Source of the DNA: Clostridiaceae bacterium
GTDB taxonomy: Bacteria; Bacillota; Clostridia; Acetivibrionales; DTU013
Direction: 5' to 3'
Length of the DNA: 64,000 bases
Assembly (NCBI GenBank): GCA_039679375.1
Contig: JBDKVA010000076.1
Location: forward strand, 2,139 to 66,138
In this document: positions 25,330-60,999 of the stretch, in pieces
How positions within the stretch are numbered: the first letter of the stretch is position 1
Layout: the number at the start of each line of letters is the position of its first letter
Made by a program: the position numbers and the translations under genes
Notes under the pieces: model-generated
The model's database searches: none
Seen by the model: the letters and a program-made list of their open reading frames with translations, nothing else
Told to the model about the DNA's origin: nothing

Positions 25330-25398
25330 TAGAGCATGCTGAAGATGCAAAAGGTTGGAAGTCCGGTATTAAATCAAACCGGATACAGGAGGATGGAG

Positions 25399-26472
25399 AT
25401 GGAACGTAATATACGGATCATACGAACACATACACATGACCCATGGCGGAATCTGGCCGTTGAAGAGTATATGCTCGACCGTGTGGAGAGAGGCCAATGC
25501 ATTTTATACCTCTGGCAAAACGAAAATACCATAGTAATAGGAAGAAATCAGAATCCATGGAAGGAATGCAAGACAGAACTCTTTGAAAACGAAGGCGGCA
25601 AGCTTGCAAGACGGCTTTCGGGCGGCGGAGCGGTCTATCATGACCTTGGCAACCTGAACTTCACTTTTATTGCCAGCCGTGAGCGATACGACCTTGAAAA
25701 GCAGTTGAGCGTCATACTTGGCGCCGTCAACAGCCTTGGCATAAAAGCTGAGATGAGCGGGAGAAACGATCTGACTGCAGACGGCCGGAAATTCTCCGGC
25801 AATGCGTTCTGTTTCCGGAAAAACGGAGCTTACCACCACGGGACAGTGCTGGTTTCGGCCGACTTTGGAAAGCTCTCGAAATATCTGCAGGTATCGGAAG
25901 AAAAGATGCGTTCAAAGGGAGTACAGTCCGTTCGGTCGAGGGTGGTCAACCTGAAGGAATTGCTGCCGTCGCTTACGATCGATAAAGTGGCTCAGGCGCT
26001 GATTGAATCTTTTATGTCGGTCTATGGCGGTACGGCGCGTGTCGAAGATGCGTTCAATGACGGGCAGGCAGGAAAGCCGGCATTAGAGGAGCTTTACAGC
26101 AAGTACGCTTCCTGGGACTGGAGATATGGAGAAGCGCCGAAGTTTGACGTGGATATGGAGACGAGATTCCCGTGGGGCGGCGTTGAAATAGGCTTTAAGC
26201 TGGAAAATGGGCAGGTCAGGGAGGCCTCCGTCTACTCGGATGCGATGGATGAAGCGTATATTGCTGCGCTGCCCGGTATTTTCAAGGGCTGTATCTTCAG
26301 CTCAAAGCAACTGGCTGAGCGGCTCCGGCTTGCGGTAGCGCCGGATAACGCCGAAGCAGCCCGGATGCCGGACTTTGCGGGCACTGCCGGAGCAATGATG
26401 CAGGACATGGCGGGGATCACAAGGACAATGACGCTTGATCTGGCGGAATGGCTTGAGGGCAAGGGATTCTAA
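25399..26472 (+). CDS. lplA: Lipoate--protein ligase
   Basis: 'NPWRNLAVEEYML', 'LYLWQNENTIVIGRNQN', 'RRLSGGGAVYHDLGNLNF' and 'GRKFSGNA' are typical LplA/LplJ motifs. GGAGG lies 6 nt before ATG 25399. The ORF track begins at 25336. Confidence 0.9.
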   Translation: MERNIRIIRTHTHDPWRNLAVEEYMLDRVERGQCILYLWQNENTIVIGRNQNPWKECKTELFENEGGKLARRLSGGGAVYHDLGNLNFTFIASRERYDLEKQLSVILGAVNSLGIKAEMSGRNDLTADGRKFSGNAFCFRKNGAYHHGTVLVSADFGKLSKYLQVSEEKMRSKGVQSVRSRVVNLKELLPSLTIDKVAQALIESFMSVYGGTARVEDAFNDGQAGKPALEELYSKYASWDWRYGEAPKFDVDMETRFPWGGVEIGFKLENGQVREASVYSDAMDEAYIAALPGIFKGCIFSSKQLAERLRLAVAPDNAEAARMPDFAGTAGAMMQDMAGITRTMTLDLAEWLEGKGF

Positions 26473-26527: not shown

Positions 26528-28129
26528 ATGAGCATAGACGTTAAACCAATTAATGTAGGTGCTATGGATTGCTTTGAAAGTATTTTTGCATCCGTACTGG
26601 AATGGAAGAAAATCCATCATGAAATCCTATGGATCAATTCCATAGGATTTGATTTTATAAGGGACGATAATGCTGCAACAGACAAAATTGGCAAGAGAGT
26701 AACTGCAGGTAAAGACATTTTTGAATTCAACAGCTTTGCAAAAGAGTTTTTAAACATATATTGCACGGAGCATTTAAAAAAAGATCCTGATGAGGATTTG
26801 ATCGCAATCACGGGCGAAATATCGGAAGGCCGTCCCGTTATGCTTTTGATCGATCCATTCTGGCTCCCGTGGAAAAAGGAAGCATACGGAGTGCACCATT
26901 TATTGCCGGGACATTCATGTCTTGCTGTCGGAATGGATAATGAAATAATTCATTGCATAGATACTGTACCAAAGATATTGGATGACGCCATTTTACCAAT
27001 AAGTGATTTTAAGCAGGGCTGCAATGCATATATTACGTTTTGCTTTGACAATAGCATACCGTTGCGGTTGTTGCGTGACGATCTATTAGACATGATGATT
27101 GGCAACCTGAAATATTCTTCGTATTATACGGACTCTTTTCGTGCTATGAGGGAATTTGGCAGATGTGTGAATGAATTGCCCGATTATTCATTAGAGACGG
27201 CAGGCTATACGGAACATACCTTCTGGCTGGCTCCTATAATAAATAGCAGCGACAGGATTTTTAGATCATATGGCAAATTTTCAATGCTGGTAGAATTTCT
27301 TAATACACAATATCATATGGATATACCATCAACGGTGCCGGAGCTTATTGAACGTGGAGAACTGATATGGAATACGGTTTTGGGTCTTTTCACAAAAGCA
27401 TTTTTTTCTCCCGGGAAAGCGAAAGCAATTTTAACCAGGACGTCAGCAAAAATTATCGAAGCAGCAGACACTGCGGAAGAGATATGCAATGAATTACAGA
27501 AATTTAGAAATAATGATTATACCTCCATGTCAGCAGCGCATGAAAAAAACAGTCCCCAAAAGGGCAGGAGTATAAAAGATGTAACCTTCATCAATTTAAC
27601 GGACCATTTTAATAATAAAGGCTTCGGCAGAGGAATTTCACCGGATAACAGAGCGGACCTGAACGGGTTCGGATATTACCTTCTATCAGACGGCATCCCT
27701 GATGATATATGGGCGGTACAGGAAATAAAATATCAGCTTCCTGATTTATTTACTGATGATAATGACAATATATCCTGCGACAATCAAGTCGTTGATATCC
27801 GGCCGGGACGCTACAATGGCATTTCTATACTTGGATGCGCAGAGGCAAGAAATCAAGGGGGCTTTTTGAATATATTTTATTCAGACGGGAGCAGTGATGA
27901 AATAATTGTAAAATTCACAGATTGGTGCGCCAAACCGCTTTTTGGAGAAACGGTAGCATGGACTGGTTTACGGGTATGCAAATACGAAGGGAAAGCAACA
28001 GTCTGCGAAGAAAAAGCTAATTTATTGATTCAGCAGTATGAGATCAATCACAACAAAACAGTTGTAAAAATAGTATTGCCGGACTGCTGGAATCTTCATA
28101 TTTTTGCAATATCGCTGTTCAGATATTGA
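26528..28129 (+). CDS. Free-standing BtrH-like (papain-fold Cys/His) protein with an additional ~190-aa beta-rich C-terminal domain
   Basis: 533 aa. The N-terminal 'GAMDCFESIFASVL' (Cys15), 'EGRPVMLLIDPFWLPW' and 'GHSCLAVGMD' align in order and spacing with the C-terminal domain of the last megasynthase (59690-60720). The C-terminal domain is not recognised. Confidence 0.55.
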   Translation: MSIDVKPINVGAMDCFESIFASVLEWKKIHHEILWINSIGFDFIRDDNAATDKIGKRVTAGKDIFEFNSFAKEFLNIYCTEHLKKDPDEDLIAITGEISEGRPVMLLIDPFWLPWKKEAYGVHHLLPGHSCLAVGMDNEIIHCIDTVPKILDDAILPISDFKQGCNAYITFCFDNSIPLRLLRDDLLDMMIGNLKYSSYYTDSFRAMREFGRCVNELPDYSLETAGYTEHTFWLAPIINSSDRIFRSYGKFSMLVEFLNTQYHMDIPSTVPELIERGELIWNTVLGLFTKAFFSPGKAKAILTRTSAKIIEAADTAEEICNELQKFRNNDYTSMSAAHEKNSPQKGRSIKDVTFINLTDHFNNKGFGRGISPDNRADLNGFGYYLLSDGIPDDIWAVQEIKYQLPDLFTDDNDNISCDNQVVDIRPGRYNGISILGCAEARNQGGFLNIFYSDGSSDEIIVKFTDWCAKPLFGETVAWTGLRVCKYEGKATVCEEKANLLIQQYEINHNKTVVKIVLPDCWNLHIFAISLFRY

Positions 28130-28241: not shown

Positions 28242-28270
28242 TTGACTTTTTTAAAGATTATAAATATAAT
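28242..28270 (+). promoter_or_regulatory. Near-consensus sigma-A promoter in front of the PKS/NRPS operon
   Basis: TTGACT, 17-nt spacer, TATAAT, 46 nt upstream of the thioesterase start. It sits in an A+T-rich 186-nt gap. Confidence 0.55.
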
Positions 28271-28315
28271 ATTTAAAACGACATTAATGTAATTAATGGG
28301 AAATGGTGTATATTT

Positions 28316-29056
28316 ATGAGGGGATCCGAACATTTGTCAAGTATAATAAAGTTATTCTGTTTCCCCTATGCAGGCGGTTCAGCATCCGTATACGGTAAAC
28401 TGAAACAGTATTTGGATAAAAATATTGAAATCGTACCTATTGAGTATACCGGAAGAGGAAAAAGGATAAATGAGAAGTTCTATACCGATATTTCCGGTGC
28501 AATCGACGATATTTATGAAGTGATCCGCAAACATATTAATGGTCATGAGTTTGCATTTTTAGGTCACAGCATGGGATGCGTCATTGCTTATGAAATTTGC
28601 AAAAGAGTAAGGGAGGATTGCGGAAGGGAACCGGCGCACATTTTTGTATCGGGAAGATATCCGCCGCACGTCAGGAAGAAGAGTACCATTTTACATACTC
28701 TCCCAAACGACAGGTTTAAAAATGAAATTATGAAAATAGGAGGTACTCCGAAAGAAATATTTGAAAATGAAGAATTGTCACAAATTTTTATTCCCATACT
28801 GAAGGCTGATTATAGGTTGGTAGAGCTTTATGAATTTCAGGATGAGAATGTAAGATTCAACTCCGGGATCACCGTATTAAGCGGTAAGGATGACAAAATA
28901 GTTGAAAAGGATGAATTATATGAATGGCAAAAGTATTCATTCTATGCAATAGATTTATATGAATTTGACGGCGGACATTTTTTTATCAACAACTATGTTA
29001 AGGAAATAGCGGAGATCATTAATCATTCACTAGACGTTCGTTCTATACCGGTATAA
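28316..29056 (+). CDS. Type II (editing) thioesterase
   Basis: 246 aa with 'FCFPYAGGSASVY', nucleophile elbow 'GHSMG', and 'GKDD' / 'GGHFF' at the C-terminus. Confidence 0.9.
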   Translation: MRGSEHLSSIIKLFCFPYAGGSASVYGKLKQYLDKNIEIVPIEYTGRGKRINEKFYTDISGAIDDIYEVIRKHINGHEFAFLGHSMGCVIAYEICKRVREDCGREPAHIFVSGRYPPHVRKKSTILHTLPNDRFKNEIMKIGGTPKEIFENEELSQIFIPILKADYRLVELYEFQDENVRFNSGITVLSGKDDKIVEKDELYEWQKYSFYAIDLYEFDGGHFFINNYVKEIAEIINHSLDVRSIPV

Positions 29057-29082
29057 TCTAAAACGCCTGTTTATGGAAGGAA

Positions 29083-31059
29083 ATGAACATGCTCGATAGT
29101 GGAATGTCGACGACCGTTTTTTTAGTTTCGGGTGCATTTATACTTGTAACAATATTTCATCTCTTCATACTTCTTAAAGAGATCGTGACGAAGCAGCGCA
29201 GTTTTCGAACGAAAGGGATAAAAGATGCTGGTACTGTTCTATTTTCTTTCGCACTTATCGGCGCGATTTTTTATTGCCTCTACAAGGCTCCGTTTGCGTT
29301 GTTTTACGGAACAACATGGGAAATGATTGATGAATTCGGACCTTCACTACTTATTAAAGTAGCTGTTTGCATGGTTTTTGTCATCCCATTATTTTATCTG
29401 TATTTTATTCTTTCACACTTCTTTGTTAAGAAAAATGGCAAGCCCTATTTTTTGATTATTATACTCAGCATATTGAGTGCGTTAGGGAACTCGATGATTA
29501 TTGTAATAATAAATCAGGCGCTAAACAGGGTAATGGGAGATGAAAGCCGCAGGGCCGGGATAGAAAGCGGATTATACCTATACTTCCTGCTGGGTATTGC
29601 GCTTTTTACAGTAAGCGCAATGATCGTCAGAAAAAAGTTAATTGTCATTACAAGCCAGATGGTTTACGAAAAGCGGGTAGAGATTATCGACAGGTTAATG
29701 AACGCTCCCTATGAAAAATTTGAAGCGATGGAAGACGGCAAGATACATGCCGCCCTTAATAATGACACCGAAGCAGTCAGCGGGTTTGTTAATGCATTAG
29801 TCAATGGATTGACCGGAGTTATTACATTAATTACATGCTTCATCTATTTGGGAACAATCAACCTGTTAGGAATGCTTTTCTCAATTTTAATGATATGCGT
29901 TGCCGTAGGACTATTCCTTTCTGTCAGTGACAAAGCGGAAAAGAAGTTTGAAGAGAACAGAGATATACAAAATCATTTTTTCAGGTTTATTAATGATATG
30001 GTAAAAGGCTTTAAAGAGCTGTACATAAATAAAAAGAAGTGCCGTGAATTCACGGATGATATTCAAAAAAGCTGCCTGGATTACCGGGATTCACGCGTCG
30101 AAGGGGAGTTCAGCTTTGTCGGAGTCTCAATATTGGGGGAAATACTTTATATCCTGGTAGTCGGTATTGTCGTGTTTATTTTCCCGTTGATATTTCCGAA
30201 TCTGGAGAACACCAGACTAAACAACTATGTTCTTGTATATTTATACATGGGCGGGATCGTAAATCAGGAAATTTACCTGGTGCCGGGAATCATGCGGGTG
30301 CTGGTCAGCTGGAGAAGGATAAATCAATTTATAAATGAGCTTTCATCCCAGAATCCTGCAAACCGCCATACTTCTGCTCCTTTAAACAACAAGGCTGCTT
30401 TGGATATAAGCTTGAAAGACGTCAGGTTCCAATACAAAAATGAAACCGGAGAAAACTTCTCTGTAGGTCCTCTCAATTGCAACTTCAAATCAGGAGAAAT
30501 TGTTTTCATATCCGGTGGAAACGGGAGCGGCAAATCAACTCTGGTCAAGCTGCTGACAGGTCTTTACAGACCTGATGAAGGCAATATTACCATAAATGGA
30601 CTTCCTGTTGATACAGAAACTCTCGGGAGCTGCTTCTCAACTGTTTTCAGTGATTTTTTTCTTTTTGACAAAATGTATGGCATCGACTATGAAAGGAAAA
30701 CTGCGGAAATCAGTCACTACCTGGATGTGCTGCGTATCCGGGATAAAGTCCGGATATGCGACGGAGTATTCAGCACAGTTAAGCTTTCTACCGGACAGAG
30801 GAAAAGGCTGGCTCTTTTGATCAGTTATCTGGAGGACCGCCCTGCTTATGTTTTTGATGAATGGGCGGCAGATCAGGATCCGGAATACAGGAACTTCTTT
30901 TACAGGGCATTGCTGCCCGAACTGAAGGCAAGAGGCAAGGCGGTTGTTGCCATAACGCATGACGACCGCTATTTCAGTGAAGCGGATATACATATAAAGA
31001 TGGAAACAGGTCAGATCATCAGCTGTGTAAGGAATCACGCACAAGCTGTGACTGCATGA
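29083..31059 (+). CDS. Cyclic-peptide-type ABC exporter (SyrD/YojI-like fused TMD-NBD) with an N-terminal extension
   Basis: 658 aa. Walker A 'GGNGSGKST', signature 'LSTGQRKRL', Walker B 'YVFDEWAADQD'. About 110 extra N-terminal residues carry about 3 additional hydrophobic helices. Confidence 0.85.
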   Translation: MNMLDSGMSTTVFLVSGAFILVTIFHLFILLKEIVTKQRSFRTKGIKDAGTVLFSFALIGAIFYCLYKAPFALFYGTTWEMIDEFGPSLLIKVAVCMVFVIPLFYLYFILSHFFVKKNGKPYFLIIILSILSALGNSMIIVIINQALNRVMGDESRRAGIESGLYLYFLLGIALFTVSAMIVRKKLIVITSQMVYEKRVEIIDRLMNAPYEKFEAMEDGKIHAALNNDTEAVSGFVNALVNGLTGVITLITCFIYLGTINLLGMLFSILMICVAVGLFLSVSDKAEKKFEENRDIQNHFFRFINDMVKGFKELYINKKKCREFTDDIQKSCLDYRDSRVEGEFSFVGVSILGEILYILVVGIVVFIFPLIFPNLENTRLNNYVLVYLYMGGIVNQEIYLVPGIMRVLVSWRRINQFINELSSQNPANRHTSAPLNNKAALDISLKDVRFQYKNETGENFSVGPLNCNFKSGEIVFISGGNGSGKSTLVKLLTGLYRPDEGNITINGLPVDTETLGSCFSTVFSDFFLFDKMYGIDYERKTAEISHYLDVLRIRDKVRICDGVFSTVKLSTGQRKRLALLISYLEDRPAYVFDEWAADQDPEYRNFFYRALLPELKARGKAVVAITHDDRYFSEADIHIKMETGQIISCVRNHAQAVTA

Positions 31060-32414
31060 ATAAAAAGACGGGAAAGCAGCTTAGATCAATAAAAAGTGGG
31101 GTTCATGGAATGATAAAGAGGTTTTTTACAGTTTGCCTGCTATCCATATTTCTGCTCCAATCAGGATGCAGCAGTGTGATATCCGTTCCTTCCGCACCGG
31201 TCGGCAGCTACAGCGTCGATGGGGTAAGCATTACGGATAAAGGTAATTACTTTAGTGTTGTACTTGATTTTACCACCGGTCTGACACACAGGCAGGTCGG
31301 AGAAGCTTATGCAAAGGGAATACTGCAGTTGGTGCCCGACTATGAAGCACTTGTTGATTCATACATTGCTGAAAATATTATTCATTCCGATTACAAACCC
31401 GCTTTTAACCGTATAGAGGACATTAAACCCGGTATAAATGATGATTTTATAGAAGAGATCGATGCAATGGCGTCAGTTTTGTCCGGTGGCGGGAATGATT
31501 TGAGAAGAGATGGAAAAGTGTCGCGAAATGAATTTTATCTCTTTAACCTGTTCACAGATGTAGTTCGTGGTACCCAATGCAGTTATATCTCGGTTTTCGG
31601 AACGCGTTCCGCAACGAAAAAAACGATCACGGGAAGGAACCTGGATTGGTACGGAGGCAGCAGGAACCAGCTTCCAAGGCTCCAGGCAGTAATTACCCAC
31701 CTTTATCCTGACAAAAAGGTATGTTCTATCGGTTACATGGGTTTTATGGGAGTTATTACAGGTTTTAATGACAGCAGGATTTTCGCGGGTATCCTTGATT
31801 CAGGTACAAATGCGGCATATACATCCGAAGGAAGGCGCTCCTATGTTTTTGATCTGAGATATGCGCTGGAGAATATGAGAACGATGGATGATGCGGCGGA
31901 ATTTATGAGAGATCCCTCAAAGCTTTATACATATAACCATATCATCGGGTTTTCCGATCCGGACAGGAGCATTATTCTGGAAAATAATTTCAGCGGGAGC
32001 GGATCGGACGGGAACAGAGTAAAACGCGCAATAAGAGAGAGCGATTCCGGGCTGAACAAAAATATAACCTGGGGGATCAGTAATGCCGCAGCTGCAGTAA
32101 ATTCCTTTGTGCTTTACGGTAATCATGATAATCATACACCCAATAAATATAATACGAAAAGGTGGTCAAATATTAAAACACAATTGCAGAATGAAGGCTC
32201 AGAGGTATCCTCCGAGAAAATGAAGAGGATCATTTCCTATAACCGCGGCAAACCGGGCAACTTTTCCGAGAGCGGCGATATTTATAATAAAATGACTTTG
32301 CAAATGATCGTATTTCAGCCGGATACCCTGTCGCTTGAGATTTATTTTCGTCCGAAGGGTAACAGGATCAACCCGGTTCAACCTGTTTTTGAAAAGATTG
32401 AGGTTTTTGAGTAA
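31056..32414 (+). CDS. Secreted or lipid-anchored Ntn-hydrolase-like protein (peptidase C45 / acyl-CoA:6-APA acyltransferase-like)
   Basis: 452 aa; 4-nt overlap with the exporter gene. Signal/lipobox-like 'FTVCLLSIFLLQSGCSS'. 'GTQCSYISVFG...ITGRNLDWYGG' resembles the self-processing Gly/x-Cys nucleophile and the 'GxNxDW' motif of C45/C59 Ntn hydrolases. An alternative start is ATG 31110. Confidence 0.5.
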   Translation: MNKKTGKQLRSIKSGVHGMIKRFFTVCLLSIFLLQSGCSSVISVPSAPVGSYSVDGVSITDKGNYFSVVLDFTTGLTHRQVGEAYAKGILQLVPDYEALVDSYIAENIIHSDYKPAFNRIEDIKPGINDDFIEEIDAMASVLSGGGNDLRRDGKVSRNEFYLFNLFTDVVRGTQCSYISVFGTRSATKKTITGRNLDWYGGSRNQLPRLQAVITHLYPDKKVCSIGYMGFMGVITGFNDSRIFAGILDSGTNAAYTSEGRRSYVFDLRYALENMRTMDDAAEFMRDPSKLYTYNHIIGFSDPDRSIILENNFSGSGSDGNRVKRAIRESDSGLNKNITWGISNAAAAVNSFVLYGNHDNHTPNKYNTKRWSNIKTQLQNEGSEVSSEKMKRIISYNRGKPGNFSESGDIYNKMTLQMIVFQPDTLSLEIYFRPKGNRINPVQPVFEKIEVFE

Positions 32415-32446
32415 TAAACGATGAGATAGAATGGGGGAAGCGAAAA

Positions 32447-35400
32447 ATGTCCCAATATGCTACTCTTGTTGATTTGATCAAGGCGAGAAAAGAAGAGGAA
32501 CAAAAAGGAATAACATTCATTCTCGGCGATAAGGAAGAGCGCTATGTATCATATAAGCAGCTGTACCTGACGTCTTTACGGCTTCTGTATACTCTCCGGC
32601 AATCAGGCTACAGGCAGGGAGACGAGGTCCTGTTTCAAATCGAGGATAACGAGCGCTTTGTTTATTCCTTCTGGGCATGCATTCTTGGCGGTATGATACC
32701 TGTACCCGTATCTACAGGCAATAACGATGAACACAAGCTGAAGCTGTTTAAAATATGGGGTAAACTGAAGAATCCAAGAGTGATCATATCAGCCGAGTTC
32801 CTGAACAAAATGGAAGCATTCGCCGAAAAAAACGGATTAAGCGCTCAAATGGAGGCTGTCAGGAACAGCGCGACGTTTATTGAGGATGCCATTCAGACAG
32901 AGATGTATGGGGATATTTGCCGCCCCGACCCGGAAGATATTGTACTGATCCAATTTTCATCGGGCTCCACAGGCGACCCGAAAGGTGTGATCATTACACA
33001 TGGAAATGTTCTGACAGATTTGAACGCAGTGATCCGGTGGGAGCATATCGGCATGAACGACGCCGGACTTAACTGGATGCCTCTTACGCATGACATGGGG
33101 TTGATCGGCACGCACATAAAAGGGATCATGGCATGCATAAACCAATTCAATATCCAGACACAGCTGTTTATAAGGCATCCCTCCCTATGGATCGAAAAAG
33201 CCAGCGAGCATAAGGCTACCTTGCTGTACTCGCCTAATTTCGGATATAAACATTTTCTGAAGTTCTATAATCCTGAAGCAATGAAGGAATGGGATTTGTC
33301 AAGCGTACGTCTGATTTTCAACGGGGCTGAGCCGATATCTCTCGACCTCTGCAATGAATTTCTGGACAAGATGGCTGTCTATGGTCTAAAGAGGAATGCC
33401 ATGCATCCCGTATACGGCCTGGCGGAAGGTACCATTGCCGTTGCCTTCCCGAATGACGGCGAAGAATTATTGTTCCACACGCTTGACAGAAACCATCTTA
33501 GGATCGGAGAAACAGTAGTCGACTTATCGAATGAAAATAAGAATTCCATTGTTTTTTTGGACGAGGGTTATCCGATTTACAATAGCTTTGTCCGCATCTG
33601 TGATGAAGAAAATCATGATATAGGCGAAAACAGGGTGGGCTGCATTCAGATATCGGGAGGAAATGTCACTTCGGGATACTATAATGACATTCAGGCTACA
33701 AAAGAGGCTATAACACCCGATGGATGGCTGAAAACCGGCGACCTTGGCTTCATGAGGAACAGAAGGCTTACCATCACCGGGCGTTCAAAGGATGTTATTT
33801 TTGCAGCCGGGCAGAATTTTTATTCCCATGATATCGAGCGCGTCTGTGAATCGGTTGATGGCATGGAACTTGGCAAAATAGCGGCAGCGGGAGTATTCAA
33901 TGACCGCCTGGGATGTGATGAACTGATTCTTTTCGTCATGTACAGGCAAAAGCTTGAATCCTTTATTCCTGTTGCAGCAAGCCTGCGGAATGCGATCAGC
34001 CGGAAAATGGGTATTGAGGCCACGGAGATCATACCGGTAAAAAATATCCCCAAAACAACGAGTGGAAAGCTTCAACGGTATAAATTGCGTGAGGAATACA
34101 TAAATGGGGAGTATGACTTCATCAAGCAGCAAATGCATGCTTTACTGGAAGAAGATTTTAAAAGAAGGGAAATTGTTCCGCCTGCTAATCCCATCCAGGA
34201 AGAGCTGGTTAAAATATGGTCGGAGGTTCTGAACATTGAGCGGATAGGTATCCGGGACAATTTCTTTGATTTGGGAGGGGATTCCTTACGGATTACCCAA
34301 ATCGCTTCCAGAATTAGAGATCGTTTTCAAGTCGATTTGAATCAGGCAGCGCTTTTTGAAAATACTGATATACAAAAGCTTGCAGAGGTGGTGGAAAATG
34401 CGGCTTGCAAGCGGAAAGACACGTCTGGTGAGATCCGTACGGCAGCGTGTTTAAGTGAAAGGGCTCCCCTTTCCTTTGCGCAGCAAAGGCTATGGTTTCT
34501 TGACCGCCTGCATTTGCAAAGCCCCCAGTATAATCTGTATACGGGGTTTATTTTGAAAGGCATCCTGAATAGGGAGGTACTGCAAAAGAGCCTTAATAGT
34601 ATCATGAAGCGGCATAAAATATTGCAGTCCTATTTTATTGAAGAAAACGGTAAACCTGTGCAGATGCTGGACCAGGAAGCTATAATGCCACTGAAGTATG
34701 TCGACTTGAGGAACATACCGGAAGCGGACAGGAGGACAAAAGCCGAGGATCTGGCAAAAATGGAAGCGGGAAAGTCCTTTGACCTTGAAAAGCCTCCGCT
34801 TATCAGAGGCAGGCTGATCTGCACCGGTGATGCGGAGCATATGCTGATTTTAGCGGTACATCACATCGTTTTTGACGGATGGTCTTTCGGAATACTCCTG
34901 CATGATCTGAATCTATTTTATGAAGCGCTTCTGAATGGAGAGGAGCAAACGCTGTCTGAGCCGGATATACAATATGCTGATTTTTCCAGGTGGCAGAATG
35001 AAAATGAATGGCCAGGATATTTGAACGGGCAGCTTGCATATTGGAGGAAGCAGCTTGAAGGCCGCTTGCCCGTATTGGATTTGCCGCTCGACAATCCAAG
35101 GCCTCCGGTCCAAACCTACAATGGAGCAAGGTTTACATGCGGCATTCCGGCGGAACTGGTGAATAAGCTGCAGAAATATGCAAGGAAAGAGAATGCAACA
35201 TTGTTCATGGTGCTGCTGGCGGCATTTAAAACTCTTCTATGCAGGTATTCAGGCCAATCGGACATCATTGTAGGCTCGCCCATAGCTAATAGAAACCGGA
35301 AAGATATTGAGGGCTTGATTGGATTTTTCACCAACAATATTATCCTGCGCACCCGCTTTTCAAATAAGATCGTGTTTAGCGAGCTTTTAGCAAAGGTGAG

Positions 35401-38400
35401 GCAGGTAACCGTCGAAGCCTATACGAATCAGGATGTTCCGTTTGAAAAGCTTGTCGGGGAGCTGCATGCGGAACGGGATATGAGCAGGAATCCATTGTTT
35501 CAGGTACTGTTCGGAATGCAGAATGCGCCTGTACCGAAAATGGAATTTTCCGAACTGAATGTCTCAATACTGGAACTGGATGCAGGATATTCAAGGTTTG
35601 ACCTGTCTGTTGATATCCGTGATGCCGGAGATAGATTATTCGCTGATTTCGAGTACAATACTGATCTCTTTAGTGAAGACACAATTTCAAGAATGGCAGG
35701 CCATTACCGGCAGTTGCTTTCGTGTATTGCATATAATCCTAATTTGCCGTTGGACAGCTATGAAATAATGACGGCGGGGGAAAAGAAAACTATACTTTAT
35801 AAATGGAATGATACAAAGAAAGATATAAATGCCTGTTCCAACTGGACCGAGCTTTTTGAAAGGCAAGCGGCGGCATCGCCGGATGCTGTTGCAGCGGTTT
35901 GCGGGAAACAGCAGGTAACTTACTCCGAGCTGGATGAACGCTCCAATCGCCTGGCTCATTACCTGCATTCGGCCGGGGTGGGACCGGAGACCGTTGTAGG
36001 AGTTTATACCGACCGTTCTATTGATATGCTTGCAGTGCTTATTGGGATACATAAAACAGGAGCTGCCTATTTGCCGATGGATCCCATTTTCCCAAAGGAG
36101 CGCCTTGCCTATATCATTGAAGATGCAAATGTTGGTTTGATCTTATCGGAAAAGAAGCTGTCCGGTACTCTTCCCCGCCATAATGCCAGGGTTGTCAGCC
36201 TGGATTCCGAGTGGGACATTATTTCCGGATATAGCGCCGCCAGAATTGATGTTAATAAAAATTCCCGCGATCTTGCCTATGTGATATATACCTCGGGTTC
36301 TACAGGCAAGCCGAAGGGTGTTCTGATCGAGCAGCATTCATTGATAAATTTTCTGTTATCTATGGCTGAAAAGACCGGCGTAAAAAAGAAGGATTCTTTG
36401 CTGGCTGTTACGACATTATCCTTTGATATTGCAGGTCTGGAGCTTTATATGCCTCTGATTTGCGGCGCCCGGGTCGTGATCGCCCAAAGGGATGATGTTT
36501 CTGACGGCAGCAGACTGGAACGGCTGCTGCATGAGCAGGGTATTTCCATAATGCAGGCGACGCCTGCAACATGGAGGCTTCTCATAGAGTCGGGATGGAC
36601 CGGCTGCAGCGGCCTGAAGGTATTATGCGGCGGTGAAGCACTGTCCCAGGATCTTGCCGGTCAGCTTTTGGACAGATGTTCTGCTCTGTTTAACGTATAC
36701 GGTCCGACGGAAACTACAATATGGTCGACGATAGAACGCGTAGAATCCGGGAGCGGAATGGTATCCATCGGCAGGCCGATTGCAAATACGCAGGTGTATG
36801 TGGTGGATGATTCCATGAACCCCGTCCCCGCAGGAGTACCCGGTGAACTGCTTATTGGCGGTGACGGGCTGGCGCGGGGATATATGAACCTGCCCGATCT
36901 GACCGGCGAGAAATTTATTCCTGACCGGTTTGGTAAAAAACACGGTGCGCTGCTCTACAGAACGGGGGACACCGTCAGGTTCATACAGGATGGAAAGCTT
37001 GAATTTATGGGCCGTAAGGACAATCAGGTAAAAATCAGGGGATATAGGATCGAGCTTGGGGAAATCGAAAATTTGATAAATCAGGAGCCGTCCGTAAAGG
37101 AAAGCGTTGTTGCCGCAAGGGAGCTTATTCCGGGAGAAAAGGCCCTGGTAGCGTATATCATACCCTCTAGGGAAAAAGGTGGGGATATCAGCATCGAACA
37201 CATGCGTAAAAACCTGGCGGACAAGCTGCCGGCTTATATGATACCATCCTCCTATATGGTAATGGATTTCTTCCCAATGACGCCAAATGGCAAAATTGAC
37301 AGAAAAGCTTTACCTTTACCTCAAAGCGCAAGTATAAAGCTGGGTGTAAATTATATAGCACCGTCAAGTGAAATAGAAAAGCAGCTTGTTTCAATTTGGA
37401 AGGAAGTCTTGAAAACAGATGCAGTCGGCTTGAACCAAAATTTCTTTGATTCGGGAGGGCATTCGCTGTTGTTGGCCCAGGTGAGGAGCAGGATCGGGAG
37501 TGCCTTAAAAAAGGATGTCTCTATGATGGACCTGTTCAAATACCCCACAATAGCTGCGTTATCAGGTTTTCTCTCGGAGGACGGCAAGCTTGCGGCAGGG
37601 ACGGGATCCGCTGCAATGACTGGGGCTGGACACGCTGATACGCAAGAAGGTGGGAAAATGTGCGAAAAAGTAGCAGTGATAGGGCTCAGCGGCAGATTCC
37701 CGGGTGCGGATGATATAGAGCAATTCTGGAATAATCTTTGCAGCGGAGTTGAGTCCATATCACGGTTTTCAGATGAGCAGGTATCAGGAGAAGGCATTGA
37801 TGCGGATATGCTGAGGAAACCCGGCTATGTAAAGGCGTGGGGAGCACTTGACGGTATAGACAGATTTGATGCCGGATTCTTTGAGTACAACCCAAGGGAG
37901 GCGGAAATCCTTGATCCGCAGCAAAGGGTATTTCTGGAGGAATCATGGAAGGCTCTGGAGAATGCAGGTTATGATGTGGAGAAATTTAACGGCCTGGTGG
38001 GAGTATTTGCAAGCGTAGGCATGAATACCTACGCACAAAGGCTGAAGGACAGTTATGCTTCAAATGGCCTGGCAAGCGATTATCAGATCATGGTCGGCAA
38101 TGATAAGGATTTTCTTGCGACACGCATTGCCTATAAGCTAAACCTTGAAGGTCCCGGCATTACTGTTCAGACAGCATGCTCTTCATCACTGGTAGCCGTT
38201 CATCTGGCATGCCGGAGCCTGATCAGCAGGGAATGCGATATGGCACTGGCAGGCGGCGTTAGCATCAGACTGCCGCAACAAGCCGGATATCTGTATCAGG
38301 AAGGAATGATCCTGTCCCCTGACGGCCATTGCAGAGCTTTTGACGAGCAGGCGCAGGGTACTGTGGGAGGCAACGGCGCAGGCGTTGTAGTATTAAAACG

Positions 38401-41400
38401 CCTTGACGACGCCATTTCGGACGGAGATGATATAAGCGCCGTCATTCTCGGAACAGCGGTCAATAATGACGGAGCAATGAAAGTGGGATATACGGCGCCG
38501 CGTATCGGCGGGCAGGCAAAGGCGGTCGCGAAAGCGCAGGCAAAGGCAGGAGTTGAGCCCGAATCAATAACATACATTGAAGCGCATGGGACAGGAACTC
38601 CTCTTGGTGATCCGATAGAGATAGAGGCGCTGACGCAAGTCTTCAGGGAAAAGACAGAGAAAAAGGAGTACTGTGCGATCGGTTCGGTGAAAACGAATAT
38701 AGGGCATCTGGATGCGGCGGCGGGCGTAACGGGGCTGATCAAAACCGTGTTATCGCTGCGTAACAGGATGATACCTCCGAGCTTGAATTTTACAAAACCC
38801 AATCCAAAAATAAAATTCAGTGAAAGCCCGTTTTACGTAAACCGCTCGCTGACCGGCTGGAGTAATGCATCAGGTCCGCTCAGAGCAGGGGTGAGTTCCT
38901 TCGGGATCGGAGGGACAAACGCACATGCCGTACTGGAAGAAGGACCGGCAATAAAAAGTGATGAAAATACAGGCAGGCCTTTATTATTCATATTATCAGC
39001 CAAAAGCAAAAAAGCCCTGGAGAGCATGACGGCAAATTTCATCCGCTTTTTGGAAAACAACAGCGCCGTTAACCTTGCGGACGTTGCATATACGCTGCAG
39101 CTCGGGCGCAAGGAGTTTGAATACAGGAGGTTCTTCGTAAGCGCGACCGTTCAGGAAGCTTTGGAGGCACTGAGAAATAACGCCGGTCAGCAAAAATATG
39201 ACGGTCGGCAAAATAACAAAGGGGGGTCCGGGGATTATCCATTGGAGCAGATCGGACAAATGTGGCTGAACGGCGACAGCATAGATTGGGTAAAGCTTTA
39301 TAAAGGACAGAAGAGAAAACGTATTCCCCTTCCGGTATATCCCTTTGAAGGTCAATCCTATTGGGCAAAAAAAGCCATGCCTGTAAAGATGGAGCAGCCT
39401 GCGGCAATGATAACCGGAAGGGCTGACATTTCCGGGTGGTTTTATACGCCGGTATGGAAGCAGTCAGTTGAGAGCAGCGGCAGTCCCGACCCGGGAAGCT
39501 TCAGAAAAGGAGTCATTCTTATTTTGATGGATCGCTGCGGTTTTTCTGAGGCTTTTTCCGTCCATTTGAAGCAAAGGTACATAAATACGGTTGTAGCTAC
39601 AACATATGAAGAATATAGACAGGCAGATCAGCATCGCTATCTTTTTAATCCGGCGGATCCTGCGCATTATGACCGGTTAATCGGCGATCTGGCGAAAAAA
39701 GGGGAAACGCCTGAGATGATTGTAAATATGCTTGGAATAGATACAGATACACATGAAGTGAGTGCACAAGATGGTTTATATTTTGGAGAGAGGTTGTTTT
39801 TCAGTATGATGTATCTGGCGCAAGCCGCAGGCAGGAATGCCATGAATACGCCGATACAGCTTAAAGTGCTGGCAAACCGCTCTCAAAAGATATTGAGCGG
39901 CGAGACGATCTCTCCTGAAAAAGCGCTTCATCTCGGGGCTTGCAGAGTTATACCCAGAGAGTATCCGAATATCAGGTGCTGCAGCATTGATTGCGTATTG
40001 CCGGAAACAGGAGGCATACAGGAGCAGGAACTGTATGATCTGCTTGCGGACGAAATTTGCTTCATGCCCTGTGAAGGGCTGATCGCATATCGAGGAATGG
40101 AAAGGTGGAAACAGGAGTACGAAAGATTTAGTCCCAATGAGAAAAACCGCCGGACCGTCAAGCTTAAGAATAACGGCGTGTATATCATAACAGGGGGTTT
40201 GGGCGGGATCGGGCTTGAAACGGCCGGTTACATTGCAAATAAAACGCATACAGCGATAATTCTGCTGGGGCGGTCCTGGTTTCCTGACGCCTCGCAGTGG
40301 GAACAATGGCTGGAAACGCACAGCAAAAAGGATGTGATATCGCGCAGGATAAAGCGGCTGAAAGAGATACAGAAAACCGGTGCTGAGCTGTTTATATGCC
40401 GTGCGGATGTTTCCGACCGCGATCAGCTGAGGAATATCCGTGACGAAGTGATAAAGAGGTATGGGAAAATAGATGGGATCATACATGCCGCAGGCATTCC
40501 CGGAGGCGGTATGATTCAGCTTAAAAAGAAGGAAGATGCAAAGAAGGTCCTGACGCCAAAAGTAAAGGGGACACTGGCCTTATTTGATACATTCGTGGAT
40601 TGCCGCCTTGATTTCATGGTATTTTACTCATCGCTTAACGCCGTTACAGGCGGCTTCGGGCAGATTGATTACAGCGCTGCGAATGCATTTCTTGATGCTT
40701 TTGCCCTAGTACACGACAGCCATAAAGGCACCAGGTTCATATCGATTGATTGGGACAGATGGGCGGGAATCGGTATGGCATCCGGGATACTGCCGGGCAT
40801 GGACGATAAAACAGAGGATGTGCATCCGCTTTTAGGCAGATGTTTGAATGAACGTGAGGATACCGTCATTTTCTTAATAGAAATAAGCCCCGAAAAGAAC
40901 TGGGTGTTATCAGAGCATCTGGTGCTCGGCATACCTACGGTTGCCGGTACGACTTATCTTGAAATGGCCAGAGCTGCTTTGGAGGAGTTGACCGGAAGCA
41001 GTAAAGCTGAAATTACCGATGTGTTGTTTTTATATCCGCTGGCGGTTAAACCGGGAGAAAAACGGAATGTCTTCACCTTCATGATGAAAAATGGGAACGC
41101 CTACGATTTCAGGATTATCAGCAAGGCCGGCGGCGAAGATAATGAAAATGCAAACTGGCTGGAGCATATACGAGGGAAGATTGCGCCATTTGATAATGAA
41201 AGAGGCGGTGTCTTCACTCTCCAGGATCTAAAAGAGAAGTATGGCGCTGAAACGATATATTCTGACGGCGGACAGTATAAGCTTTCCGAAGAATTTATCA
41301 GCTTCGGCGGCAGGTGGAGGTCGCTCAGAAGCTTTACATGCAGTAATGACGGCGGATTGGTTGTAGTCCGGCTGGAGGATGAATTCATAAAAGATCTTGA

Positions 41401-42337
41401 AAGCTGCCCTCTCCATCCGGCGCTGCTGGATATCGCTACCGGCGCTGTCAGGTTTGCGGCGGGAGGCAATTATCTGCCGTTCTCATACGGAAATTTAAAA
41501 ATATATGAGCTGCTGCCGGGCACGATTTACTGTCATATAAAATTTGCGGACAGAAGCGGTTTATCCGGGGAGATCATAACATGCGACATCGATATCATAG
41601 GAGAAAACGGAGCGCGGTTGCTGGAGATTAAAGATTTCTCCATGAAACTGGTTAGTGAGGCGTCTGCAGATAATTTCAGAAGACGGACCCGTTCCGATTC
41701 AAAACAGGTTGAGGCTGACTCCGTAATGAAGCTTGCCGAGCAGATTCCGCAAGGAATGAAGAGATCAGTGCAGGAAGGCATTAGCGCATCAGAAGGAACG
41801 GAAGCTTTGCACCGCATCATCAACGGATGCTTCAGGCCTCAGATCATCGTCTCTGCCAGAGACATGCGTGATGCCATGGAGAATGCGGATTACATAAGCC
41901 GGTCCGGTCTGAAGGATGCGTTTATCGAGGCTGCAGTTTCAAATGACAGGCATCCGAGACCTGAATTGGAAAATGATTATGCGCCTCCCAGGAATGAGAC
42001 GGAAAAGAAACTGGCTGAACTATGGCAGGATGTTCTTGGTATAGATAAGGTTGGCATTCATGATGAGTTTTTTGCTCTCGGCGGAGATTCATTATTGCTG
42101 ATACAGTTCCATACGAAGCTAAAAGAAGCCGTTACAAGTGAAATTGCGGTCGTGGACCTGTATAAATACAACACGATCGCACTGCTTGCAAAACGGATCA
42201 AAAATGAATGTGAGGAAGAAGAACAGCCGGCCTTTGAGAAAGTAAACAGCAGGGTCAACAGGCAGCTGGAGCTGATGAAAAAAAGAAGACGGCAGATGTC
42301 AGGAGATAAAGGAGCGGGTTCAGATGAATCATATTGA
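32447..42337 (+). CDS. Hybrid NRPS/PKS, 3296 aa: FAAL-ACP-C-A(Gly)-T-KS-[linker]-KR-DH-ACP
   Basis: FAAL/AMP-ligase core 'FSSGSTGDPKGV' (32954-32989). ACP 'GGDSL' (Ser 34283-85). C 'HHIVFDG' (34859-79). A 'YTSGSTGKPKGV'. T 'GGHSL' (Ser 37463-65). KS 'TACSSS' (Cys 38177-79), 'EAHGTGT', 'NIGHL'. No AT domain. KR 'GGLGGIG' (~40190). DH 'HPLLG', 'EHLVLGIPTVAG' (His 40916-18), 'HPALLD'. ACP 'GGDSL' (Ser 42089-91). Confidence 0.9.
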   Translation: MSQYATLVDLIKARKEEEQKGITFILGDKEERYVSYKQLYLTSLRLLYTLRQSGYRQGDEVLFQIEDNERFVYSFWACILGGMIPVPVSTGNNDEHKLKLFKIWGKLKNPRVIISAEFLNKMEAFAEKNGLSAQMEAVRNSATFIEDAIQTEMYGDICRPDPEDIVLIQFSSGSTGDPKGVIITHGNVLTDLNAVIRWEHIGMNDAGLNWMPLTHDMGLIGTHIKGIMACINQFNIQTQLFIRHPSLWIEKASEHKATLLYSPNFGYKHFLKFYNPEAMKEWDLSSVRLIFNGAEPISLDLCNEFLDKMAVYGLKRNAMHPVYGLAEGTIAVAFPNDGEELLFHTLDRNHLRIGETVVDLSNENKNSIVFLDEGYPIYNSFVRICDEENHDIGENRVGCIQISGGNVTSGYYNDIQATKEAITPDGWLKTGDLGFMRNRRLTITGRSKDVIFAAGQNFYSHDIERVCESVDGMELGKIAAAGVFNDRLGCDELILFVMYRQKLESFIPVAASLRNAISRKMGIEATEIIPVKNIPKTTSGKLQRYKLREEYINGEYDFIKQQMHALLEEDFKRREIVPPANPIQEELVKIWSEVLNIERIGIRDNFFDLGGDSLRITQIASRIRDRFQVDLNQAALFENTDIQKLAEVVENAACKRKDTSGEIRTAACLSERAPLSFAQQRLWFLDRLHLQSPQYNLYTGFILKGILNREVLQKSLNSIMKRHKILQSYFIEENGKPVQMLDQEAIMPLKYVDLRNIPEADRRTKAEDLAKMEAGKSFDLEKPPLIRGRLICTGDAEHMLILAVHHIVFDGWSFGILLHDLNLFYEALLNGEEQTLSEPDIQYADFSRWQNENEWPGYLNGQLAYWRKQLEGRLPVLDLPLDNPRPPVQTYNGARFTCGIPAELVNKLQKYARKENATLFMVLLAAFKTLLCRYSGQSDIIVGSPIANRNRKDIEGLIGFFTNNIILRTRFSNKIVFSELLAKVRQVTVEAYTNQDVPFEKLVGELHAERDMSRNPLFQVLFGMQNAPVPKMEFSELNVSILELDAGYSRFDLSVDIRDAGDRLFADFEYNTDLFSEDTISRMAGHYRQLLSCIAYNPNLPLDSYEIMTAGEKKTILYKWNDTKKDINACSNWTELFERQAAASPDAVAAVCGKQQVTYSELDERSNRLAHYLHSAGVGPETVVGVYTDRSIDMLAVLIGIHKTGAAYLPMDPIFPKERLAYIIEDANVGLILSEKKLSGTLPRHNARVVSLDSEWDIISGYSAARIDVNKNSRDLAYVIYTSGSTGKPKGVLIEQHSLINFLLSMAEKTGVKKKDSLLAVTTLSFDIAGLELYMPLICGARVVIAQRDDVSDGSRLERLLHEQGISIMQATPATWRLLIESGWTGCSGLKVLCGGEALSQDLAGQLLDRCSALFNVYGPTETTIWSTIERVESGSGMVSIGRPIANTQVYVVDDSMNPVPAGVPGELLIGGDGLARGYMNLPDLTGEKFIPDRFGKKHGALLYRTGDTVRFIQDGKLEFMGRKDNQVKIRGYRIELGEIENLINQEPSVKESVVAARELIPGEKALVAYIIPSREKGGDISIEHMRKNLADKLPAYMIPSSYMVMDFFPMTPNGKIDRKALPLPQSASIKLGVNYIAPSSEIEKQLVSIWKEVLKTDAVGLNQNFFDSGGHSLLLAQVRSRIGSALKKDVSMMDLFKYPTIAALSGFLSEDGKLAAGTGSAAMTGAGHADTQEGGKMCEKVAVIGLSGRFPGADDIEQFWNNLCSGVESISRFSDEQVSGEGIDADMLRKPGYVKAWGALDGIDRFDAGFFEYNPREAEILDPQQRVFLEESWKALENAGYDVEKFNGLVGVFASVGMNTYAQRLKDSYASNGLASDYQIMVGNDKDFLATRIAYKLNLEGPGITVQTACSSSLVAVHLACRSLISRECDMALAGGVSIRLPQQAGYLYQEGMILSPDGHCRAFDEQAQGTVGGNGAGVVVLKRLDDAISDGDDISAVILGTAVNNDGAMKVGYTAPRIGGQAKAVAKAQAKAGVEPESITYIEAHGTGTPLGDPIEIEALTQVFREKTEKKEYCAIGSVKTNIGHLDAAAGVTGLIKTVLSLRNRMIPPSLNFTKPNPKIKFSESPFYVNRSLTGWSNASGPLRAGVSSFGIGGTNAHAVLEEGPAIKSDENTGRPLLFILSAKSKKALESMTANFIRFLENNSAVNLADVAYTLQLGRKEFEYRRFFVSATVQEALEALRNNAGQQKYDGRQNNKGGSGDYPLEQIGQMWLNGDSIDWVKLYKGQKRKRIPLPVYPFEGQSYWAKKAMPVKMEQPAAMITGRADISGWFYTPVWKQSVESSGSPDPGSFRKGVILILMDRCGFSEAFSVHLKQRYINTVVATTYEEYRQADQHRYLFNPADPAHYDRLIGDLAKKGETPEMIVNMLGIDTDTHEVSAQDGLYFGERLFFSMMYLAQAAGRNAMNTPIQLKVLANRSQKILSGETISPEKALHLGACRVIPREYPNIRCCSIDCVLPETGGIQEQELYDLLADEICFMPCEGLIAYRGMERWKQEYERFSPNEKNRRTVKLKNNGVYIITGGLGGIGLETAGYIANKTHTAIILLGRSWFPDASQWEQWLETHSKKDVISRRIKRLKEIQKTGAELFICRADVSDRDQLRNIRDEVIKRYGKIDGIIHAAGIPGGGMIQLKKKEDAKKVLTPKVKGTLALFDTFVDCRLDFMVFYSSLNAVTGGFGQIDYSAANAFLDAFALVHDSHKGTRFISIDWDRWAGIGMASGILPGMDDKTEDVHPLLGRCLNEREDTVIFLIEISPEKNWVLSEHLVLGIPTVAGTTYLEMARAALEELTGSSKAEITDVLFLYPLAVKPGEKRNVFTFMMKNGNAYDFRIISKAGGEDNENANWLEHIRGKIAPFDNERGGVFTLQDLKEKYGAETIYSDGGQYKLSEEFISFGGRWRSLRSFTCSNDGGLVVVRLEDEFIKDLESCPLHPALLDIATGAVRFAAGGNYLPFSYGNLKIYELLPGTIYCHIKFADRSGLSGEIITCDIDIIGENGARLLEIKDFSMKLVSEASADNFRRRTRSDSKQVEADSVMKLAEQIPQGMKRSVQEGISASEGTEALHRIINGCFRPQIIVSARDMRDAMENADYISRSGLKDAFIEAAVSNDRHPRPELENDYAPPRNETEKKLAELWQDVLGIDKVGIHDEFFALGGDSLLLIQFHTKLKEAVTSEIAVVDLYKYNTIALLAKRIKNECEEEEQPAFEKVNSRVNRQLELMKKRRRQMSGDKGAGSDESY

Positions 42338-45398: not shown

Positions 45399-45474
45399 AC
45401 ATCCGGTATTTGCATAAACAATCGGGCCTGTTTCAGAAATCCGGCTCAGAAGGGCCGGGGCCGTAAAGGTATGT

Positions 45475-52670: not shown

Positions 52671-52699
52671 TAATAAATTAACACAAGTTTACGGGAGGT

Positions 52700-60741: not shown

Positions 60742-60999
60742 GTGTTGAGCAGCGTATATGAAAAAATAGTGGAAATAGTAAAAAGGCATCTGTATGAAAT
60801 AGCGCCGGAAATGGAAGTGACACTTGAAAGCAGGTTAATAGACTTAGGAATTAATTCAATAGGGTTTATAAAAATAATCGTTGAAGTTGAAAATGAATAT
60901 GATTTTGAATTCAATGACCTGGATTTGGATTTTAAAAAGTATGTTACGATCAAAGATTTTTGTGATTATATATTAAAAAAATACATTCAATTAATATAG
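60742..60999 (+). CDS. Stand-alone acyl/peptidyl carrier protein
   Basis: 85 aa with a GTG start after AGGGGA. 'LIDLGINSIGFIKIIVEVENEY' has the D-x-G-x-x-S phosphopantetheine-attachment motif (Ser 60856-58). It starts 18 nt after the terminal megasynthase gene. Confidence 0.7.
   Translation: MLSSVYEKIVEIVKRHLYEIAPEMEVTLESRLIDLGINSIGFIKIIVEVENEYDFEFNDLDLDFKKYVTIKDFCDYILKKYIQLI

Follow-up and report, generated by a model that had tools for sequence, protein, structure and literature searches.

Introduction

The final form of polyketides and nonribosomal peptides is set at chain release, and to our knowledge few release chemistries are known, namely those of thioesterase (TE), reductase (R) and terminal condensation (C) domains and some others. 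Recognition of the papain-like thiotemplated ligases CtaG, CcbD and BtrH is recent, and they have been described as enzymes that stand alone; BtrH, for instance, acylates a free amine with a group taken from a carrier protein. Here we analyse computationally a gene with a BtrH-like N-terminal part, located at positions 26528..28129 of a 64,000-nucleotide stretch of Clostridiaceae DNA (assembly GCA_039679375.1, contig JBDKVA010000076.1, positions 2,139 to 66,138 of the forward strand; "the window" denotes this whole stretch). The gene, hereafter the target, lies beside a cluster encoding polyketide synthases (PKS) with a trans-acting acyltransferase (trans-AT) and nonribosomal peptide synthetases (NRPS).

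Among the closest described systems, CtaG loads Cys11 with the acyl group of one carrier protein and then acylates an amine borne by another, a ping-pong course that was shown experimentally (PMC7183216, PMC12865890). CcbD uses a carrier-protein donor, an acyl-Cys and a Cys-His-Glu triad to form an amide with a free amino sugar (PMC12945683), and in MllDE, from the methylolanthanin pathway, a carrier protein is fused to a CtaG-like transacylase, according to an AlphaFold3 analysis (PMC12865890). The AziU3/AziU2 pair acts on free O7-sulfo-DADH, displacing its sulfate to close an aziridine (PMC12559475, PMC11168924). We found that the target joins counterparts of AziU3 and AziU2, in that order, in one chain; it is probably, on balance, a cytoplasmic enzyme accessory to the adjacent trans-AT PKS-NRPS cluster, namely a carrier-protein-dependent acyltransferase of the papain-like CtaG/CcbD/BtrH class.

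A single-chain AziU3-AziU2 architecture

The target is an intact open reading frame (ORF) of 533 amino acids (aa) on the + strand, with an ATG start and an AGAGGTG-type ribosome-binding site 5′ of it, and no competing ORF of 80 aa or more is present on the opposite strand inside it. Pfam assigned the protein a single domain, BtrH_N, at residues 15-145, with a marginal 30.5 bits against a gathering score of 29.7 (relatives of the target score 23-35 bits), and an NCBIfam scan gave no match. An AlphaFold2 (AF2) model built from a 134-sequence family alignment reached a predicted local distance difference test (pLDDT) of 93.7 and a predicted template-modelling score (pTM) of 0.92, where a 3-sequence alignment had given a pLDDT of only 39; the pTM indicates that, as modelled, the two domains are confidently packed into one particle. 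The features of the protein, with the evidence for each, are as follows.

26528..28129 (+): target gene, "U3U2" protein, 533 aa (ORF, AF2 model, Foldseek matches to AziU2/AziU3/CtaG/CcbD, family search)
26528..27517 (+): residues 1-~330, papain-like alpha/beta domain (~1-175) plus helical domain (~183-327) (BtrH_N, secondary structure of the model, Foldseek, AziU3 profile match)
26570..26572 (+): codon of Cys15, predicted nucleophile (Cys in 132/134 members; aligns with C1918 of the last synthase; positioned like CtaG Cys11, PMC7183216)
26912..26914 (+): codon of His129, predicted general base (His in 116/134; aligns with H2023 of the last synthase and with the His of "HAAHLLVV" in AziU3; CtaG His128)
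26960..26962 (+): codon of Asp145, third triad residue (Asp in 131/134, Glu in the other 3; aligns with E2041 of the last synthase; CtaG Asp144, CcbD Glu, PMC12945683)
27557..28126 (+): residues ~344-533, AziU2-like beta-sandwich (phmmer, family profile, Foldseek 7wuw_A, residue conservation)

The C-terminal ~190 residues had been described, from the sequence alone, as a beta-rich domain that could not be assigned. The beta-rich character held: the AF2 model confidently shows a discrete all-beta domain. Although no Pfam or NCBIfam model matches residues 341-533, three comparisons assigned them. A phmmer search of the target against sequences in the Protein Data Bank (PDB) returned AziU2/Azi28 (7WUW_A, 8GS1_A) at E 9e-8, the family profile aligned its positions 344-527 with residues 28-208, near the whole chain, of AziU2 (E 2.6e-20, 76 bits), and Foldseek against the PDB ranked AziU2 (7wuw_A) first (E 3.7e-14, TM score 0.84, root-mean-square deviation (rmsd) 2.0 A, 23% identity). 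Two motifs of the domain, D413-N414-x-x-C417-x-x-Q420 and L517-P518-x-C-x-x-x-H524-I-F-A, are common to AziU2, and D413, N414, C417, Q420, P518, H524 and F526 are nearly invariant across the 134-sequence family alignment, in which all residue conservation reported here was counted. The C-terminal domain is thus an AziU2 homologue. ORFs of 130-171 aa that match the AziU2-like profile alone occur in three other loci (L012 9974-10366, L013 3773-4162, L016 4374-4886), so that AziU2-like proteins, or fragments of them, appear to stand alone in metagenomes as well.

The N-terminal part shows, in the secondary structure of the AF2 model, the bipartite arrangement of a papain-like alpha/beta domain and a helical domain, and residues 1-~330 are modelled with the BtrH/CtaG/CcbD/AziU3 fold. 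Foldseek matched this part to AziU3 (E 1.6e-11, TM score 0.65), to CtaG (E 3e-10, TM score 0.69 over ~340 columns) and to CcbD (E 3e-6, TM score ~0.56). By sequence, the family profile matched the papain-like core of AziU3/Azi29 at E 9e-4, AziU3 being the sole solved relative of the N-terminal domain recovered in the PDB profile search; PDB sequence searches from the target family did not recover CtaG or CcbD, a link seen by Foldseek alone, and the helical domain drew spurious matches to designed coiled coils. The C39 peptidases ComA and PCAT1 appeared weakly in the PDB searches (E 0.007; Foldseek TM score ~0.2 on the query), and a Pfam scan of the target gave no Peptidase_C39 match at E≤0.01. 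Because the N-terminal part matches AziU3 and the C-terminal domain matches AziU2, the target is a one-chain version of AziU3/AziU2. Its C15, H129 and D145 occupy the canonical positions of a predicted Cys-His-Asp triad, and E223, W281 and K290 of the helical domain are nearly invariant.

Within the coding sequence (26622-26650, +; codons ~32-41) stands a perfect 12-bp inverted repeat with a 5-nt loop and a T-rich tail, which a scan flagged as terminator-like; such sites are no commoner in the region than in shuffled sequence.

Some relatives of the target are fused to carrier domains at assembly-line ends

Whereas word-indexed homologue searches gave only two relatives (P0001 and P0002), an exhaustive HMMER search over representatives of 50%-identity clusters returned 1822 at E≤1e-3 and 419 at E≤1e-30, and the AziU2-like domain is included in all of the best 150. 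In 12 of these best 150 representatives an NRPS or PKS protein ends in the whole two-domain module, and in 11/12 of the fused forms it directly follows a thiolation (T) or acyl carrier protein (ACP) domain. With U3U2 denoting the module, examples are C-A-T-[U3U2], KS-KR-ACP-[U3U2] and KS-AT-ACP-[U3U2] (A, adenylation; KS, ketosynthase; KR, ketoreductase; AT, acyltransferase), and the C-H-D triad is kept in 12/12. The C-terminal place after a carrier domain is the position of a chain-release domain. Pfam found no TE, R or C domain in the target, whose fold is papain-like plus beta-sandwich, so that its module may act like a release domain without belonging to the canonical TE/R/C classes.

A relative without the AziU2-like domain was also seen: a 319-aa protein of a Bacillota metagenome-assembled genome (L005, 529-1488), which adjoins a folK-like gene, scores 305 bits with the N-terminal profile; it falls, as a "U3-only" form, in the subfamily of the target's N-terminal part.

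The terminal domain of the last synthase

A second papain-like Cys/His domain is found at the other end of the cluster, as the C-terminus of the last megasynthase (53983..60723, 2246 aa).

59698..60723 (+): terminal papain-like plus helical domain, "U3-only", synthase residues 1906-2246, with C1918/H2023/E2041 (hhalign, profile of the N-terminal 340 residues, L024 orthologue)

The preliminary description had paired motifs of this domain with those of the target (MDCFESIF with KGCFYSAY, among others) and regarded the two as paralogues. The quoted motifs were all verified, as were the spacings, which by count are 87/27 for C15-R102-H129 in the target and 80/25 for C1918-R1998-H2023 in the synthase. 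Pfam scored the synthase terminal region at 27.4 bits for BtrH_N and 25 bits for Peptidase_C39_2. A BLASTP comparison of the two regions was not significant (E 0.87, 19% identity), its best alignment falling in the register proposed earlier, and the full-length family profile missed the synthase domain in a default-filter hmmsearch; with --max and an N-terminal sub-profile (340 residues, 136 sequences) it was found at 42.4 bits, in two collinear stretches (~1966-2075 and 2172-2245). Comparison of the family profile with the last 386 aa of the synthase by hhalign gave 95.8% probability (E 7.6e-9, 295 columns), pairing target residues 4-329 with synthase residues 1906-2245, C15 with C1918, H129 with H2023 and D145 with E2041, and matching the helical-domain signature W281, K290 and E316. 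The C-terminal-domain profile had no match in the last synthase; its terminal domain hence contains no AziU2-like part.

The proposed homology therefore stood up to profile-profile comparison, and the N-terminal part of the target and the synthase terminal domain are homologous over their whole length. Since their identity is just 14-19%, the relationship lies at the superfamily level and does not reflect a recent duplication, and the word paralogue overstates it. The synthase domain matches U3-only counterparts in other loci at E 9e-49 and the target at E 3.7, which places it, judging from these alignments, in a separate U3-only subgroup.

The adjacent cluster and its borders

The genes and elements that surround the two papain-like enzymes are listed below.

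25336..26472 (+): lplA, left flank, housekeeping, GC 0.522 (Pfam, GC)
28242..28270 (+): promoter-like TTGACT-17-TATAAT, an 11/12 consensus match only, in the 186-nt, 20%-GC gap between the target and the thioesterase gene
28316..53965 (+): type II thioesterase, ABC exporter, C45-family acyltransferase/hydrolase, four megasynthase genes and trans-AT (Pfam, NCBIfam)
52700..53965 (+): trans-acting acyltransferase (Pfam Acyl_transf_1; 54% identity in L024 by tblastn)
59392..59601 (+): last ACP of the terminal NRPS-PKS, residues 1804-1873, directly before the papain-like domain (carrier-protein HMM 42 bits; Pfam PP-binding in 2 stretches)
60742..60999 (+): free-standing carrier protein, 85 aa, GTG start (Pfam PP-binding 40.4 bits)
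61077..61184 (+): glycine riboswitch heading gcvT-gcvH-gcvPA, right cluster border (Rfam RF00504, 54.2 bits)

The four megasynthases before the trans-AT read A-T-C-A-T-KS-KR-DH-ACP (DH, dehydratase), KS-ACP, C-A-T and KS-KR-ACP, and the last synthase, after it, reads C-A-T-KS-ACP-[U3-only]; no megasynthase of the window has an integrated TE or R domain. The free-standing carrier protein, which is unannotated and has a GC content of 0.279, begins 19 nt after the last synthase and is 35-40% identical to free-standing carrier proteins beside U3U2 genes in loci L024 and L008, which makes it a candidate partner of the papain-like enzymes. A C45-family autoproteolytic acyltransferase/hydrolase (NCBIfam NF040521, 193 bits), possibly an acyl-transfer or prodrug-type tailoring enzyme, is encoded at 31056-32414 (+), after the ABC exporter and ahead of the first megasynthase.

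Base composition changes abruptly at the left border, from 0.522/0.594 (GC/GC at third codon positions, GC3) in lplA to 0.393/0.382 in the target. GC is 0.367 in the thioesterase gene, 0.411 in the ABC gene and 0.382 in the synthase terminal domain, against 0.455-0.505 in the core synthases and 0.471 in gcvT. The cluster is thus a mosaic in which the accessory genes at its ends and the synthase terminal domain (26528-32414, 59563-60999) have a GC of 0.28-0.43; the pattern hints that the core synthases on one side, and the carrier protein and papain-like parts on the other, came in by separate acquisitions.

The cluster stands between lplA, for a lipoate-protein ligase, and the glycine-riboswitch gcv operon (61077-63997), in whose riboswitch one aptamer only scores above the gathering threshold. 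The functions of these flanks are linked via lipoylated GcvH, which suggests insertion of the cluster into a locus for lipoate and glycine cleavage; a search by exact LplA and GcvT sequence for strains without the cluster returned nothing.

Genomic contexts of free-standing members

Eight of about 11 informative contexts of free-standing members contain carrier proteins and are, in this sense, thiotemplated. The U3U2 gene of L007 lies between [C-A-T][KS-AT-KR-ACP] and [KS-KR-DH-ACP-C][C-A-T], that of L018 near an A domain, a carrier protein, radical-SAM enzymes, an S8 peptidase and an ABC transporter, and that of L019 immediately after a class-II aminoacyl-tRNA synthetase (aaRS)-like ligase and an 80-aa carrier protein. 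In L008 and L009 carrier-protein ORFs or an A-T didomain are near the U3U2 gene (in L008, two small carrier-protein ORFs and a partial A domain found with the carrier-protein HMM), together with a second stand-alone papain-like protein of 361 aa. Such a protein of ~361 aa occurs just downstream of U3U2 in both L008/L009 (13012-14094) and L024 (11864-12982), with 28% identity between loci (E 4e-28), and in the L008 protein the position of the nucleophilic Cys appears to be taken by another residue.

Two loci reproduce the pairing seen in the window. In L020 a KS-DH-KR-ACP PKS ends in a U3-only domain (36 bits) and the U3U2 gene starts ~180 nt downstream. L024 holds a homologous cluster, in which the NRPS A-T and the KS are each 49% identical to those of the window's last synthase, an ACP precedes a U3-only terminal domain 30% identical to the window's over 345 aa (E 9e-49), the trans-AT is 54% identical and the identity of the free-standing carrier protein is 35%. 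A U3U2 gene whose product shares 30% identity with the target follows this carrier protein directly, beside the trans-AT as well, inside the operon and downstream of the PKS that ends in the orthologous papain-like domain. The set of ACP-U3-only terminal domain, free-standing carrier protein and U3U2 hence recurs in the window and L024, its first and last elements also in L020, and a minimal set of ligase, carrier protein and U3U2 is present in L019. These recurring sets suggest that the free-standing carrier protein presents the donor of U3U2 and that the papain-like enzymes act in sequence.

The preliminary description had put the target in the cluster with reserve, and conservation of the gene beside lplA in genomes that lack the cluster was to count against its reading. 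Apart from the 98%-identical P0001, no U3U2 gene was found beside lplA, and no lipoate-ligase Pfam family was present among the called genes of L021-L024. The target is placed inside the cluster because its GC matches that of the accessory genes and because the homologous cluster of L024 keeps the U3U2 gene in its operon; both its membership and the partnership of the two Cys/His enzymes are thus supported. A two-step partnership had been proposed earlier as well, and the recurrence of the pair in L020 and L024 strengthens the idea of joint action. Its protect-deprotect version, on the logic of BtrH/BtrG, was rejected, no BtrG-like gene being present among the cluster genes scanned, and a role in self-protection was dropped for want of any supporting feature.

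Discussion

Taking as established the fold, the domain homologies, the conservation of the triad, the carrier fusions in relatives and the conserved co-occurrence of the parts, we propose the following course, in which the donor, the acceptor, the order of the two enzymes and the product are inferred. An acyl or aminoacyl thioester bound to phosphopantetheine would enter the cavity between the papain-like and helical domains, presented most likely by the free-standing carrier protein (60742-60999) or by the last ACP. The acyl group would move to Cys15, with His129 and Asp145 completing the triad, and would then be passed to an amine, a hydroxyl or an internal nucleophile, resulting in condensation or chain release, while the AziU2-like domain may shape or close the acceptor side of the pocket. 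The target would work with the synthase terminal domain (C1918/H2023/E2041), which would take the finished chain off the last ACP.

A bolder claim, which we advance tentatively and with less than even confidence, is that the U3-U2 module is an undescribed termination catalyst of assembly lines, acting via an acyl-Cys in an AziU2-closed cavity and possibly cyclising the chain or capturing an amine. In the window, L024 and L020 it might then form the second step of a relay with the U3-only domain and a dedicated carrier protein, a two-carrier, two-cysteine hand-over that replaces a thioesterase.

Several observations weigh against the target being an acyltransferase of the cluster. AziU3/U2, alone among characterised enzymes in having both parts, catalyses no acyl transfer (PMC12559475, PMC11168924), and a search of the open-access literature returned no description of the fused family, no characterised member or biochemical data on one, and no papain-like NRPS/PKS termination domain. 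The putative operon promoter comes only after the target, and the gene may share a transcript with lplA, whose stop (26472) is 55 nt from the target start with no terminator predicted. Three or four members, in L001, L022/L023 and L004 (upstream side only), stand in housekeeping contexts with no carrier protein in range. The target also has Tyr at position 248, where 126/134 members have Arg, and Ala at 316, where 130/134 have Glu (codons 27269-27271 and 27473-27475; both swaps also occur in the 98%-identical P0001), and the joint loss of Arg248 and Glu316 would fit a lost salt bridge or a changed carrier-protein docking surface.

The strongest matches in sequence and structure, to AziU2 (76 bits over the whole chain; TM score 0.84), invite a different reading, in which the target is a cyclase of the AziU3/U2 type that carries out an intramolecular substitution or elimination with no acyl-enzyme, for example closing an aziridine or another small ring as a leaving group is displaced, on an assembly-line intermediate or a free precursor bound in the cavity of the two fused domains. 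It would account for the obligatory pairing of a U3-like with a U2-like part, for AziU3 being the only solved N-domain relative detectable by sequence, and for the conservation of the AziU2 motifs DNIxCxGQ and LPxxxxxH[IV]FA in the family. We nevertheless regard it as unlikely. The Cys-His-Asp triad is near-invariant in the family, the module is repeatedly fused right after carrier domains at NRPS/PKS ends, in the place of a thioester-cleaving release domain, and no sulfotransferase or amino-group-carrier-protein (LysW-type) pathway gene was found among the genes scanned (26528-60999); for these reasons thioester chemistry is preferred over chemistry of the AziU type. Water as the acceptor of the acyl-Cys would give hydrolysis by default, so that an editing or release enzyme resembling a type II thioesterase has also to be weighed, as has a C39-like peptidase that cuts a leader or protecting peptide before ABC export, given that the papain-like fold is akin to C39 domains (the weak ComA and PCAT1 matches) and that an ABC exporter gene lies 1 kb downstream. 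These hydrolytic roles seem slightly less probable still: a dedicated type II thioesterase is already encoded in the cluster, transfer and not hydrolysis is the activity of every BtrH/CtaG/CcbD-branch enzyme characterised so far (PMC7183216, PMC12945683), and the conserved extra domain on the substrate side argues for a specific acceptor. A C39 leader peptidase in particular was rejected, as the target has no significant Peptidase_C39 match in Pfam and no C39 domain is fused to the neighbouring ABC protein.

The location of the gene bears on the last and least probable alternative, that the target is a non-cluster neighbour co-transcribed with lplA and acting on acyl-CoA, on an ACP of primary metabolism or on lipoyl or acyl proteins, or as a peptidase. 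The short terminator-free gap to lplA, the strong promoter-like site only downstream of the target and the housekeeping neighbourhoods of several members would all suit such a role, but the GC/GC3 break separates the target from lplA and aligns it with the cluster accessory genes, the orthologous gene of L024 is inside an operon, and most informative contexts contain carrier proteins, with no other family member at lplA. We accordingly retain the reading of a carrier-protein-dependent acyltransferase of the cluster.

The "novel-fold" AziU3/U2 pair thus has a large, fused, Cys-bearing sister family of at least 419 50%-identity clusters at E≤1e-30, whose module is found repeatedly in the thioesterase position at NRPS/PKS ends, and in some clusters it is accompanied by a dedicated carrier protein and by another papain-like domain at a synthase terminus. 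If the proposed function is true, genome-mining rules would gain a new release/condensation domain that present Pfam and NCBIfam models barely detect, the TE-less cluster of the window would have a rationale, and the evolution of aziridine synthases would be tied to thiotemplated acyl transfer.

Comparison with known systems

The aziridine synthase of azinomycin B from Streptomyces sahachiroi, AziU3/AziU2 (Azi29/Azi28; PDB 7WUW/7WUX/8GS1), of which Vzb10/11 is a homologue, is the system in which both parts are homologous to the target. The two share the DNIxCxGQ and H[IV]FA motifs and the His and Asp of the papain-like core. AziU3/U2 consists of two subunits, with AziU2 bound to AziU3, whereas the target is one polypeptide, and the sulfotransferase/amino-group-carrier-protein pathway around the former contrasts with the PKS-NRPS context and carrier proteins of the latter. 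The near-invariant Cys and the T/ACP fusions of the target family point to thioester chemistry.

CtaG, the closthioamide ligase (PDB 9QUZ and others), has the same papain-like plus helical fold as the target, with nearly coinciding triad positions (C11/H128/D144 vs C15/H129/D145; PMC7183216), and works with free-standing carrier proteins; it differs in its length of 309 aa, its lack of an AziU2-like domain and its NRPS-independent pathway. The lincosamide synthetase CcbD/LmbD (PDB 7YN1, 7YN2, 9DKR) also has the fold of the target, as a more distant match (TM score ~0.56) and without an AziU2-like domain, and its Cys-His-Glu triad is that of the window's synthase terminal domain (C1918/H2023/E2041). 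BtrH, the butirosin ACP:aminoglycoside acyltransferase, defines the sole Pfam family that matches the target (PF14399, BtrH_N; clan CA), over residues 15-145 alone; it has no AziU2-like domain, and a deprotection partner of the BtrG type was not among the scanned cluster genes of the window. MllDE, for which no AziU2-like domain is reported and which is not the terminus of a multimodular assembly line, is a precedent both for the ACP plus papain-like terminus of the window's last synthase and for the family members that are fused to NRPS and PKS proteins.

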